Shown here: positions 2,319 through 6,447 of the stretch, piece after piece | How the letters are laid out: the number at the start of each line of letters is the position of its first letter | Position numbering within the stretch: the stretch's first letter is position 1 | Origin: Sedimentisphaerales bacterium | Lineage (GTDB): Bacteria > Planctomycetota > Phycisphaerae > Sedimentisphaerales > SM23-30 | Reading direction: 5' to 3' | DNA: 64,000 nt | NCBI GenBank assembly: GCA_963663965.2 | Contig: CAXXFK010000033.1 | Location: 192,001-256,000, forward strand | The notes under the pieces: model-generated | Seen by the model: the letters and a program-made list of their open reading frames with translations, nothing else | The model's database searches: none | Told to the model about the DNA's origin: nothing | Translations under genes and position numbers: made by a program

Positions 2319-2347
2319 TTGACTGGAATCAGATATTCGGTTAAAAT
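2319..2347 (+). promoter_or_regulatory. sigma70-type promoter for the 2447/3442 operon
   Basis: TTGACT-17 nt-TAAAAT, about 100 nt upstream of ATG 2447. Confidence 0.6.
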
Positions 2348-2446
2348 CTCGCCCAATGGCAGAAGAAGTCGAATTAAAAATAGATGAATTTTCAGAGGTG
2401 CCCTTTAGCATGTGAAACTGCCTTACTAAGAAGGGAATGAGTTATC

Positions 2447-3427
2447 ATGATAGAGTTTATTCGATCCATAGCGGGCCCGGAATTTCTGGTCTATTATTTT
2501 ATTTATGCTTCCGTATGTATTGTCGTTTGTTCGGTAATTGCTTATCAGGATGGTTCCAATAACTATCCGTTGCCGAATATTAATGAGTTTACCCCGATAG
2601 CCATTGCCGTATTGCGCGGGGGTTGGGCTCTGGTAGTACGGATTATTTTATACGATTTGTGGCGAAAAGGAGCCTTGTCAATTATTGGTAATGGTAAAAA
2701 TCGCCGAATCAAGGTGGAATCCGGTATTGAACCTGCCGTGTTAGCTAATGAACCGGGCCAATTTGGTCCGGAAGGCTATTACCCGGAAAAGATTGTAATG
2801 CCATTTTTAGACGTATCTCAGGCACCGCGTGATCTGTTTATCAATGGTGACCTGAAGGAACGGATCCAGTTATACCTGACGCCGATTTATGAAAAATTAC
2901 AGGAATATCAGTTGTATCGTAAACCGGAAGATGGCTGGAAAGCCTGGGGGAACTATCTATTTTTTATGGCTGTCATGTTGACTCCGGGAATTATCAAGTT
3001 GCAACTTGGGATCAGCCGCCATAAACCGGTTATTTATCTGATCCTGTTGCTGGTTGCGGTTGTTATTGCGTTAACGATCATGGTCAGGCCATGGCGTAAA
3101 ACCACGGTGTTGGGACGCCGCTATCTCGATCAACTGGAACGGCATTTTAAATATCTGAAAGACGCCGATCCCGATTCTCATGAAATCTCATCGATCGGAT
3201 TGTTCTGGCCGATGGCCATCTTTGGTGTCGGCTATATGTCAACGATGATGAGAGATACCGAATTGGGAGACGCCCTGATCCCGTCCAGGCAAACCGCGAA
3301 TAGCTGGTTTAATGCCGGCTGTGGCAGTGGTTGCGGCAGCGGTTGCGGCAGCGGTTGCGGGAGTGGATGCGGGAGTGGTTGTGGCGGCGGCTGTGGTGGT
3401 GGATGCGGCGGATGCGGCGGTGACTGA
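2447..3427 (+). CDS. TIGR04222-like membrane protein with C-terminal Cys/Gly-rich tail
   Basis: N-terminal GPEFLVYY, IAVLRGG motif, GIIKLQLGISRHKPV membrane hairpin, TVLGRRYL, and a tail of GCGS x5 then GCGGGCGGGCGGCGGD. Confidence 0.85.
   Translation: MIEFIRSIAGPEFLVYYFIYASVCIVVCSVIAYQDGSNNYPLPNINEFTPIAIAVLRGGWALVVRIILYDLWRKGALSIIGNGKNRRIKVESGIEPAVLANEPGQFGPEGYYPEKIVMPFLDVSQAPRDLFINGDLKERIQLYLTPIYEKLQEYQLYRKPEDGWKAWGNYLFFMAVMLTPGIIKLQLGISRHKPVIYLILLLVAVVIALTIMVRPWRKTTVLGRRYLDQLERHFKYLKDADPDSHEISSIGLFWPMAIFGVGYMSTMMRDTELGDALIPSRQTANSWFNAGCGSGCGSGCGSGCGSGCGSGCGGGCGGGCGGCGGD
3317..3424 (+). repeat. 12-nt codon-diversified repeat encoding (GCGS/GCGG)n with 9 Cys
   Basis: Read directly; synonymous codons differ between units. 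Confidence 0.95.
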
Positions 3428-3441
3428 CAGCGATTGACTTC

Positions 3442-4476
3442 ATGATGGCAGATTCAGGTTATATTCCCAGAGGTTTTAATTTACAGTGGCATATCACAGA
3501 CCGCTGCAATCTGGCATGCAAACATTGTTATCAGGATACGGAGGTCAGCCATTGTCACTGGAACGAATTGAAAATCATCCTGGATAAATTTTGCCGGTTC
3601 ATTCACCGCTGGCGAACGCAGGCCGAACGACCGGTGAAGGCTCACATTACCCTGACCGGGGGCGAACCGCTGGTTCATGAATCGTTCTGGGATATACTTA
3701 ATGAATTTAAGACGCGGCAGAGGCAATTTACTTTTTCATTATTGACCAACGGTACATTGATCGATCTGGGTATAGCGGAAAAGCTGGCATATTTTGGCCC
3801 AACTTACGTACAGGTGAGTATGGATGGCAACCGGGAGACACACGAAGCCTTGCGCGGAAGAGGCGCTTTCGATCAGGCATTAAAGGGCATTAAGAACCTG
3901 CTAAAATACCAGTTGCGAACAACGATTTCATTTACCGCTCATCGACAGAATTATCATGAATTTGCGGCAGTTGCCAAAATTGGGCGAAAACTGGGAGTTG
4001 ACAGGATCTGGACCGATCGCTTTTTGCCGGCTGGACGAGGAGCGGATTTGGACCATGAGGTTCTGGATCGGGAAGAGACGCGCTGTTTTTATGAAATGGT
4101 CCGGAAGCAGCGCGATCGGATGCGCTGGATACCCGGGAGAAAGACCGTAATTTCCATGCACCGGGCTCTCCAGTTTCTGGCAGGAGGGGGCAGGCCTTAT
4201 CAATGTTGTGCAGCCGATTCATTATTAACGATAATGCCGGATGGTACTGTGTCTCCTTGCCGGCGATTGCCTATAACGTTGGGAAATGCGCTGATACAGG
4301 AATTGGATGAGATCTATTATGGCCATCCCATGGCGATTCGATTACGGGATTTCAGCGCTTCGGATACGGAATGCGGCCAGTGTGTCTACCGGAAATTATG
4401 CCGGGGCGGGTTACGATGTCTGGCTTATGCGGTCAATGGTGATCCATTCCGGCGTGATCCGGGGTGCTGGCTTTAA
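3442..4476 (+). CDS. radical SAM/SPASM domain protein (putative peptide/protein maturase)
   Basis: CNLACKHC (CxxxCxxC), LTGGEPL, and SPASM cysteines QCCAA...PDGTVSPCRR...CGQCVYRKLCRGGLRC...DPGCW. Confidence 0.93.
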   Translation: MMADSGYIPRGFNLQWHITDRCNLACKHCYQDTEVSHCHWNELKIILDKFCRFIHRWRTQAERPVKAHITLTGGEPLVHESFWDILNEFKTRQRQFTFSLLTNGTLIDLGIAEKLAYFGPTYVQVSMDGNRETHEALRGRGAFDQALKGIKNLLKYQLRTTISFTAHRQNYHEFAAVAKIGRKLGVDRIWTDRFLPAGRGADLDHEVLDREETRCFYEMVRKQRDRMRWIPGRKTVISMHRALQFLAGGGRPYQCCAADSLLTIMPDGTVSPCRRLPITLGNALIQELDEIYYGHPMAIRLRDFSASDTECGQCVYRKLCRGGLRCLAYAVNGDPFRRDPGCWL

Positions 4477-4683: not shown

Positions 4684-6447
4684 ATGCCAATTTTGCTAGA
4701 ACAGGAAACCCGGCCGATTCGTTATGGGGCTTATCCGGAATTGACGCCGACGGCCGTGATTGTGGGGTATCTGATTGGGATTCTAATCGCGATCAGTATC
4801 GGGTATGCGTGCCTGATACTGGGATTTTCAATTGAAGGCTCGGAACTGGCGGCAATTTTAGGTTTCGGGGTATTGCGGGGGATCTTACGACGGAGCAGCA
4901 TTATCGAGAATAACATTAACCAGACCATCGCCAGTGCGGTCAACGGGGCGTCCTCGGGTATGATGTTTTCGGTACCGGCGCTGTTTATTCTGGGGTATAC
5001 CCAGGCAGATTTCAGTCCGCCACTGATGGTGTTTGCCTGTATTGCCGGTGGGATATTGGGGATTGCGTTTATTATCCCGTTACGCAAGCAGATGATCGAT
5101 TATGAGCGGCTTGCCTATCCGGGCGGTCAGGCGGTGGCGACGGTGTTGAAATCGCCTGGCGCCGGGATTCACAAGGCGATGCTGCTGGTTGGCGGGATAG
5201 CTTTAAGTGGTATCGTACATTTTCTGGCGAATCATTTTCATTTTGAGTATTTCGATCTGGGGGCTAAAGTGGGGATGCCGGAGTATATGAATACCGTCGT
5301 CTACGTGTCGCTGATGACGGTGGGGGTTGGTTTTATCGCCGGCAAGGGTGGATTTTCATTTATCGTCGGTGGTTTCACCTGTTACTGGGTATTGGCGCCG
5401 ATATTGGCTCAACAAGGTTTGCTTCCCAGTCCGGAAGAACTGACTGAGATGAAAGAAGCATTACCGGATTATTTGCGCAGTTCCCTGTTTAAGCCGGTGG
5501 GGATTGGCATGCTGGTAGGGGGGGCGGTAACCGGTATTGTATTGGCGTTGCCGTTGATTGCCAGTGCGATCAAGAGTATGCAGGATGCCGCTAAAAGCGG
5601 TAAGGCGATTTCTCAGGATGAGATGCCGGTGAAGTTGCTGTATATCGGGATTATTGGCGCGGCTGTTTTGTTATTTGTGATTGCGAAGAATGCCGCGGTT
5701 GAAGTGGGATACGGGCGCGCTCTGGTCATGGCATTATTGGGCACGTTGTGGATCTGGATTGCCGGAGTCGTATTATCTGAATGTGTCGGTCGCACCAACT
5801 GGTCGCCGTTGAGTGGTATGACCTTGATTGCGGTGACAATTTTAATTTTTATTGCCAGAGACATTGGCGATAAGCCGGCGATTATCGCTTCGGTATTTGT
5901 TGGGGCGGCGGCCTGTGTGGCGATGTCGCAGGCGACCGATTTGATGCTGGATCTAAAGACGGGATATATGGTAGGCGCAACCCCGAAAAAACAGCAGATA
6001 GGGCAGTTTCTGGCCACCTGGCTGGGGCCGATTGTTGTCATGAGTCTGATATTGATTTTACATCAAAGTACGGGTTTGGGCAGTAAACGATTGCCGGCGC
6101 CCCAGGGACAGGCCCTGGCAGGTATGATCCAGGGGATATTGGGCGACGACGTGCCAGTGTTGAAGTATATTGCCGGGGCAGTGCTGGGTATTATGTTAAG
6201 CTCATGCGGTATCGGCGGATTGGGAATCCTGGTGGGATTGGGTTTTTACCTGCCGTTTGATGTGGTGATTGCCTATACCGTCGGTATGGCGCTGCGCATG
6301 CTGATTGATAAATTTAAGGGAACCCACTTTGCGCACGACGTCGGCATACCCGTTGCTGCGGGCTTTATTGTCGGTGAAGCGCTGGTAGGCGTTGGTTTTG
6401 CGCTTTACAATGTGTTTTCAGGAATGATGAATCATAGCGTAAGTTAA
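4684..6447 (+). CDS. OPT/YSL family oligopeptide transporter
   Basis: ELTPTAV, IIENNINQTIASA, PLRKQMI..LAYPGG, DLKTGYMVGATPKKQQ, PAPQ and many TM helices. Start moved to ATG 4684 (RBS ACAGGAG). Confidence 0.9.
   Translation: MPILLEQETRPIRYGAYPELTPTAVIVGYLIGILIAISIGYACLILGFSIEGSELAAILGFGVLRGILRRSSIIENNINQTIASAVNGASSGMMFSVPALFILGYTQADFSPPLMVFACIAGGILGIAFIIPLRKQMIDYERLAYPGGQAVATVLKSPGAGIHKAMLLVGGIALSGIVHFLANHFHFEYFDLGAKVGMPEYMNTVVYVSLMTVGVGFIAGKGGFSFIVGGFTCYWVLAPILAQQGLLPSPEELTEMKEALPDYLRSSLFKPVGIGMLVGGAVTGIVLALPLIASAIKSMQDAAKSGKAISQDEMPVKLLYIGIIGAAVLLFVIAKNAAVEVGYGRALVMALLGTLWIWIAGVVLSECVGRTNWSPLSGMTLIAVTILIFIARDIGDKPAIIASVFVGAAACVAMSQATDLMLDLKTGYMVGATPKKQQIGQFLATWLGPIVVMSLILILHQSTGLGSKRLPAPQGQALAGMIQGILGDDVPVLKYIAGAVLGIMLSSCGIGGLGILVGLGFYLPFDVVIAYTVGMALRMLIDKFKGTHFAHDVGIPVAAGFIVGEALVGVGFALYNVFSGMMNHSVS

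Follow-up and report, generated by a model that had tools for sequence, protein, structure and literature searches.

Radical SAM/SPASM enzymes linked to the cysteine tails of TIGR04222, DUF2207 and TPM membrane proteins: a candidate enzyme-substrate pair from a Sedimentisphaerales bacterium

Radical S-adenosylmethionine (SAM) maturases of the type that act on peptides made on the ribosome and modified after translation (RiPPs) are, to our knowledge, known almost only for short peptides, and QhpD acts on a protein subunit. SbtM (TIGR04082) abstracts hydrogen from the Cys C-beta in a Gly-Cys(Sec) motif, Sec being selenocysteine, which becomes 4 Da lighter; the thiooxazole so formed shows absorption at 304 nm and remains reactive towards iodoacetamide (PMC9204691, PMC11002830); a band at about 305 nm is diagnostic of thiooxazole (PMC12668002). 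Bufferin MNIO enzymes turn Cys into copper-chelating thiooxazoles, and it is for MNIO (DUF692, PF05114) only that the tails of TIGR04222 membrane proteins are in print, in the parts of PMC12452194 consulted, as modification targets. Here we describe a gene pair within a stretch of 64,000 nucleotides (hereafter the window; contig CAXXFK010000033.1, positions 192,001 to 256,000, assembly GCA_963663965.2) of a Sedimentisphaerales bacterium, a member of the Planctomycetota, in which a 326-residue TIGR04222 membrane protein with a nine-Cys tail (2447..3427; this and all cassette features below are on the + strand) precedes a 344-residue radical SAM/SPASM enzyme of an unnamed, tail-linked clade (3442..4476). 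A sequence-only reading of the window had taken the tail for the substrate of the enzyme and had held that TIGR04222 tails have no known modifier, a statement outdated by the MNIO proposal (PMC12452194); its two open reading frames (ORFs), on the same strand and 14 nt apart, were verified in their coordinates. The pair is a real and conserved enzyme-substrate candidate, in which radical SAM Cys maturation would be aimed at the tail of a membrane protein.

Homologues of the enzyme are tied to Cys/Gly tails in other genomes, as the proposal demanded. A search of GTDB contigs with the single protein gave no match, whereas an alignment of 68 homologues did; out of 562 confirmed stretches in GTDB and 551 in metagenomes, the best 80 each were taken, 160 loci in all. 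With clade membership set at 300 bits or more on the clade profile, and a tail counted if within 1.2 kb, 29 of the 33 clade loci adjoin a Gly/Ser/Cys-tailed protein (upstream in 22, downstream in seven), against only three of the 127 loci scoring lower, which are a frameshifted clade member (L014), a cut-off member (L111) and a locus of another lineage (L031). When 28 full-length carriers were scanned, 14 were found to be TIGR04222 proteins, five full DUF2207 proteins, three DUF2207 N-terminal domains only, and four TPM proteins, with two unassigned. Because the carriers span the TIGR04222, DUF2207 and TPM families, it is the tail rather than the carrier that is conserved, and the constant element of the pairing is the tail, not the scaffold. 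We consider it highly probable that the tail of the full-size membrane protein is the substrate of the radical SAM enzyme; the earlier proposal is supported by this linkage and by the tail Cys tracking the enzyme.

The same gene slot is occupied by other enzymes elsewhere. In the reverse test, 351 genomes from the phylum of G303 yielded five TIGR04222 matches, each with the clade enzyme downstream (one of them being the seed). The window's phylum was sampled with 301 genomes, of which 17 in addition to the window's own (G000) exceed the TIGR04222 cut-off (leaving a second copy of G176 out of the count); ten of these have an adjacent MNIO gene, G159 an adjacent clade enzyme and G178 an adjacent short form of SbtM, and in G001, G118, G144 and G272 no modifier gene is adjacent to TIGR04222. 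The proteins of G001 (L163/L220) and G118 (L162/L221) are long TIGR04222 proteins of 460-500 aa with Cys tails and no MNIO or radical SAM gene within about 6 kb. Three enzyme types of two unrelated folds, namely MNIO, short SbtM and the clade enzyme, share this gene slot. The window's cluster resembles the MNIO clusters (PMC12452194) in having the same membrane protein family, the same Gly/Ser/Cys tail and an adjacent enzyme gene, and an accessory nucleotidyltransferase-like gene is found in both cluster types; unlike in those clusters, a radical SAM enzyme is the putative modifier, and assignment to the MNIO type was rejected since the window's genome (94.6% complete) gave no match to PF05114. 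MNIO is missing in 24 of the 25 genomes holding tail-linked radical SAM loci. This absence fits an enzyme replacement in low-oxygen lineages, but some of the hosts (Thiotrichaceae, Betaproteobacteria) are not strict anaerobes. No match to the clade enzyme or to short SbtM was found on plasmids, nor to short SbtM on viral contigs.

The radical SAM enzyme next to the tail of G178 (L196/L311) falls in the SbtM clade with 458 bits, above the cut-off of 350 (458-537 bits in the three short forms scanned), and is devoid of profile positions 1-195 of SbtM; 116 of its best 120 homologues are likewise short, so that the database contains at least 116 such proteins. Three further short forms (L318, L319 and L320) were found in 251 genomes of the phylum of G322. 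The order of G178 gave none in 47 more genomes, and 301 genomes of the phylum of G310 gave only one full-length SbtM. Short SbtM comes after a Cys-tailed TIGR04222-like gene in four of four loci (a partial ORF in L320), with a nucleotidyltransferase-like gene ahead of both, and TIGR04222 was found in the short flanks of none of 28 full-length SbtM loci.

The enzyme was confirmed as a radical SAM/SPASM protein by its matches to Radical_SAM (PF04055, 76.6 bits) and SPASM (PF13186, 28.9 bits). Its CxxxCxxC cluster motif (C22, C26 and C29; 3505..3528) is invariant in 68 of 68 homologues, across which ten Cys are invariant, seven of them in the SPASM domain (residues 255, 273, 311, 314, 320, 326 and 342; 4204..4467). 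With its first cluster Cys at residue 22 there is no space for a RiPP recognition element (RRE), in line with the earlier reading that none was obvious; this Cys lies at residue 66 or before in 120 of 120 homologues, none of which has an N-terminal extension. The structural model (pLDDT 92.5) matches the folds of SuiB, SkfB, PqqE and anSME, the last among the closest with TM 0.74-0.76, and CteB is also among the neighbours, amid many SPASM enzymes with other chemistry. A predicted complex of the enzyme with the membrane protein scored 0.30 against a mark of 0.32, a value obtained without folded controls.

No named family takes in this enzyme, which is below the cut-off of all of its best 25 NCBIfam families. 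SbtM comes first (158.6 bits, cut-off 350), followed by the ACGX enzymes of TIGR04340 (148 bits, cut-off 400). In a tree of 61 rows picked from a larger set and rooted on Ahb/Nir-like enzymes, the tail-linked clade is supported at 99/97, short SbtM (95/99) is nested in SbtM (100/100), and the tail-linked clade, L029, ACGX, L213 and SbtM group together at 97/94. Membership of SbtM was rejected on the score, on the position outside the SbtM clade and on the lack of an adjacent short (seleno)peptide precursor. The likeness to the SbtM/SbtA system consists in the best NCBIfam match, the shared tree group, action on Gly-flanked Cys or Sec (PMC9204691, PMC11002830) and the short SbtM members adjoining TIGR04222 tails; unlike SbtM, the clade enzyme is without the N-terminal part of about 190 residues, and its presumed substrate is a membrane-protein tail free of selenocysteine. 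ACGX enzymes are likewise short, RRE-less radical SAM/SPASM proteins, with neighbours having Cys every fourth residue in Gly/Ser repeats, but these precursors are free peptides of 70-80 aa and the clade is separate, and ACGX membership was also rejected; the literature search gave nothing on ACGX chemistry among the matches listed. At the true SbtM locus L191 (3230-3478) an SbtA-type precursor carries three Ser-Gly-Sec-Ser-Gly units (Sec read-throughs), and ACGX loci show Cys/Gly/Ser repeat peptides, and because of these the named members of the wider group are, on precursor sequence, associated with Cys flanked by small residues. A Ser/Cys/Gly/Lys-repeat precursor lies ahead of a full-length SbtM at L317:3338-3574, and a Cys/Ser-rich one ahead of an ACGX-family enzyme at L212:1166-1381; the Ser-rich tail of L215 was missed by the strict tail filter, and the tree label that denies this locus a tail is wrong.

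The membrane protein passes membership of TIGR04222, a family suggested beforehand, with 77 bits against a cut-off of 43 over residues 17-262 (2495..3232), and has the transmembrane helices and the unstructured Gly/Ser/Cys C-terminus of that family; it also matches DUF2207_C weakly, below the cut-off. Three long helices are predicted at about residues 10-33, 160-190 and 196-213, with a soluble domain between the first two and short helices following the third; in the model (pLDDT 79.8, built on an alignment of 21 sequences) disorder sets in at residue 280, from where pLDDT is mostly below 50. Foldseek gave no match at E 0.001, and the VIA fold matches are generic three-helix bundles (Z up to 10). 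Averaged over 21 homologues, the number of Lys+Arg is 0.3 ahead of helix 1 and 2.1 behind it, 2.1 ahead of helix 2, 2.2 for the helix 2-3 loop window and 3.4 behind helix 3. Only seven of the 21 have a further, fourth hydrophobic segment above the transmembrane threshold, and the TPM and DUF2207-N carriers have a single helix behind an ectodomain. This charge bias and these single-helix carriers favour an N-out protein with a cytoplasmic tail, although the charged helix 2-3 loop leaves some doubt on that placement.

The tail itself (residues 291-326; 3317..3424), the putative substrate, is made of (GCGS)5(GCGG)2-type repeats, and its nine Cys give seven CxxxC intervals and one CxxC, in line with the mostly CxxxC spacing noted before. 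This spacing is peculiar to the present copy: across linked tails CxxC is found 72 times versus 36 for CxxxC. The terminal GCGGC is the invariant element in 21 TIGR04222 proteins, and 174 of 175 Cys in the linked tails come after Gly or Ser. Codon variation between units had been read as selection on the peptide rather than recent slippage. Selection is indeed suggested, because the five GCGS units, with 23 differences over all pairs, differ at third codon positions only, but repeat slippage has also acted on the tail, since two 12-nt units are identical and one 9-nt unit is exactly duplicated.

Controls came from the DUF2207 and TPM proteins, Gly-rich-tail neighbours of LemA that resemble the present system in that TIGR04222 matches DUF2207_C weakly and Cys-tailed members adjoin the same enzyme clade, and differ from it in that ordinary members have Cys-free, Phe-containing tails and no radical SAM gene in the flank. 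The function of DUF2207 is little known, with stress tolerance and biofilm being mentioned (PMC10457818). DUF2207_C was searched in 200 genomes of the class of G305; 59 loci were read, 48 with a complete Gly-rich tail and 47 of these with at least 900 nt downstream. Two of the 47 tails carry Cys, both with the clade enzyme next door (one being the seed genome), and none of the 45 Cys-free tails has the enzyme (Fisher p 0.0009, an overstatement because of kinship and the inclusion of the seed). For TPM, the best 30 loci out of 121 genomes were read; 29 have Gly tails, of which none contains two or more Cys, and no radical SAM gene lies within the flank of about 1.2 kb of any. Of 75 Cys-free tails, 66 have an F, W or Y between positions -25 and -3 (mean 2.2), the ordinary DUF2207 and TPM tails (L222-L310) being of this Phe-bearing kind; the same holds for only one of 17 Cys tails on DUF2207/TPM carriers and for eight of 35 of all enzyme-linked tails. 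Judged from these sequences, Cys appears to take the place of Phe.

As to the chemistry, we lean, by a narrow balance, towards a four-electron oxidation of the tail Cys to 5-thiooxazole, by analogy with SbtM and MNIO. The earlier expectation had been of thioethers, with steps of -2 Da and alkylatable thiols lost; because the nearest characterised relative of the enzyme is SbtM, a loss of 4 Da with retained alkylatable sulfur is likelier, and thiooxazole is further favoured because the MNIO and the short SbtM in the same slot belong to classes that make it on peptides. After the SbtM proposal, a 5'-deoxyadenosyl radical would abstract hydrogen from the Cys C-beta, the Gly or Ser just before it would attack the thioaldehyde with its carbonyl oxygen, and a second SAM-dependent oxidation would aromatise the ring, with -4 Da per Cys. 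Modification would take place at the predicted cytoplasmic face of the membrane, the clade enzyme would be an oxygen-independent substitute for the MNIO and short SbtM of the same slot, and the reaction would leave an array of aromatic sulfur rings tethered to the membrane, with a possible role in binding copper or other soft metals, or in standing in for the Phe of ordinary Gly-rich tails. More tentatively, and at rather less than even chances, the Gly-rich tails of DUF2207, TPM and TIGR04222 proteins could exist in two interchangeable versions, one with encoded Phe and one with Cys converted to aromatic thiooxazole, for which three enzyme lineages (MNIO, N-terminally truncated SbtM and the unnamed radical SAM clade) would have been recruited separately.

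Thioether cross-links in the tail, from Cys sulfur to the C-alpha of Gly/Ser or the C-beta of Ser as in sactipeptides and ranthipeptides, are the foremost alternative and seem to us unlikely. They are kept in consideration because the SPASM domain has seven invariant Cys versus eight in short SbtM, a difference that also weighs against the SbtM analogy. Seven Cys are consistent with an open site on the auxiliary cluster, which is typical of thioether formers; SkfB and CteB are among the structural neighbours, and the enzyme-tail linkage would apply equally. The scores point the other way, since the thioether-forming families score lower than SbtM (PapB 107, SkfB 74 and QhpD-type 68 bits), the enzyme is RRE-less, and the other two enzymes of the slot belong to thiooxazole-forming classes. 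The sactipeptide/ranthipeptide maturases (SkfB, CteB, PapB) and QhpD have in common with the clade enzyme the radical SAM/SPASM fold and a Cys-rich substrate, but the clade enzyme is far below their cut-offs and has no separate precursor, and that type, with its RRE-bearing maturase and leader-core precursor, was rejected. CXXX-repeat maturases (TIGR04115, 25 bits against a cut-off of 350) and FibroRumin maturases (TIGR04136, no match at the locus in the own genome and outside the best 25 families) were rejected as well, so that the lead to FibroRumin given by the sequence-only reading did not survive. Another radical SAM gene of the own genome (C28:177493-178800) scores 216 bits on FibroRumin (cut-off 400).

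Other points weigh against an enzyme-modified tail or against the thiooxazole proposal. Four of the 33 clade loci have no nearby tail; L005 and L092 are at contig edges, but L015 and L021 have full flanks and count as true misses. G010 has its tail gene and its clade enzyme on different contigs, unlinked. G001, a genome 99% complete on one contig, has a Cys tail without MNIO and without a clade or SbtM-type match at E 1e-35 or better, and therefore Cys tails can occur without a recognised modifier. Related genomes in the samples are not independent, and since L318-L320 are close kin the short-SbtM loci amount to about two independent lineages. The tail-linked clade is not SbtM, which itself sits on a long branch (1.54) in the tree. 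MNIO modification of TIGR04222 tails is itself a proposal only, and its authors put the tails in the periplasm (PMC12452194), in contrast to the cytoplasmic placement favoured here by charge bias and single-pass carriers.

An unmodified tail, acting as a metallothionein-like or Fe-S-binding Cys array beside an enzyme that works on another substrate (small molecule, lipid or protein) or takes a metal or cluster from the tail, would accommodate G001, the lone enzymes of L015 and L021 and the one third of TIGR04222 genomes that are without MNIO (PMC12452194). It would leave unexplained why the slot is filled by three types of enzyme from two unrelated folds, why three carrier families bear Cys where the enzyme adjoins, with Cys and enzyme occurring only together in the DUF2207 sample, and why the named relatives closest to the enzyme act on peptides, their precursors having Cys/Gly/Ser repeats, and we rate it somewhat below the thioether alternative. 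Least probable is other radical chemistry on the tail (a stop at thioaldehyde or formylglycine as in anSME, epimerisation, or backbone cleavage releasing a peptide), which the TM of anSME and the anSME-like first step proposed for SbtM (PMC9204691) would suit, but for which the loci read offer neither a sulfatase-like context nor a conserved protease or exporter beside the pair, and in which the downstream OPT transporter of the window was not seen.

Within the window, the two genes are separated by 14 nt (3428..3441) in which no terminator-like site was found, and their co-transcription is inferred from this spacing alone. The proposed sigma-70 promoter (TTGACT-17-TAAAAT; 2319..2347) is present, with 10 of 12 positions matching the consensus, but it is to be regarded as a candidate only, because an equally good match lies 60 nt upstream at 2258-2287 and 23 sites of this level occur in 8 kb versus 11 expected. 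The claim that there is no separate short precursor was upheld: read under translation table 11, neither flanking gap of the gene pair holds a precursor-like small ORF, and among ORFs of 25-120 aa in the window's genome none was found, the sole match of the scan not resembling a precursor. The neighbouring genes encode a DNA-alkylation-repair-like HEAT protein (14-964, +), a stand-alone RlmL-like methyltransferase (965-2134, -, whose divergent promoter match is at 2169-2141) and a transporter of the OPT family (4684-6447, +). Third-position GC is 0.50-0.51 in both cassette genes versus 0.74 in the rlmL-like and 0.59 in the OPT gene. The latter two genes were rejected as parts of the system, as they were not seen among the related loci read.

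Variants were seen among the related loci. A gene of about 245 aa with a nucleotidyltransferase fold accompanies tail genes of all three enzyme types (L004:8952-9683, L006, L018, L061, L087, L170, L176, L002, L082, L168 and L171), with Asn or Gln in place of the usual second Asp in five of six aligned, and gave no match in the window's genome. In L004:5998-9683, L087:2293-4218 and L312:718-2382, either two TIGR04222 paralogues are convergent with the radical SAM gene or a fusion places TIGR04222 after a signal-like peptide and TPR or other domains. At L014:5920-7084 the clade enzyme is spread over several frames behind an intact Cys-tailed TIGR04222, at L031:993-3079 a Cys/Ser/Gly-tailed single-pass protein stands beside a radical SAM enzyme from outside the main clade, possibly a fourth recruitment, and in L011 LemA lies upstream of the DUF2207 carrier. 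Elsewhere in the own genome, a 419-aa protein ending in a short Cys/Gly stretch (C24:98760-100019), which may be NifB-like, and an ORF ending in more than 35 Gly (C29:82603-84279), possibly a poly-G artefact, were noted.

In the literature searched, from which most subscription papers were out of reach, a radical SAM partner of TIGR04222, DUF2207 or TPM tails is undescribed, and the parts and supplements of PMC12452194 searched make no mention of a radical SAM-TIGR04222 pairing. The pairing may account for some of the MNIO-free TIGR04222 genomes to which that paper points. If true, it would extend radical SAM maturation chemistry to whole membrane proteins, without RRE or leader and in many phyla, and would provide a compact enzyme for placing heterocycles on a genetically encoded tag. 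The poorly understood Gly-rich tails of DUF2207, TPM and TIGR04222 proteins gain a first testable biochemical step, which the short-SbtM branch narrows from some modification to a specific prediction of -4 Da per Cys with a band at about 305 nm. Should the reading of two tail versions hold, heterocycle formation on integral membrane proteins would be widespread, would need no leader and would proceed with or without oxygen.

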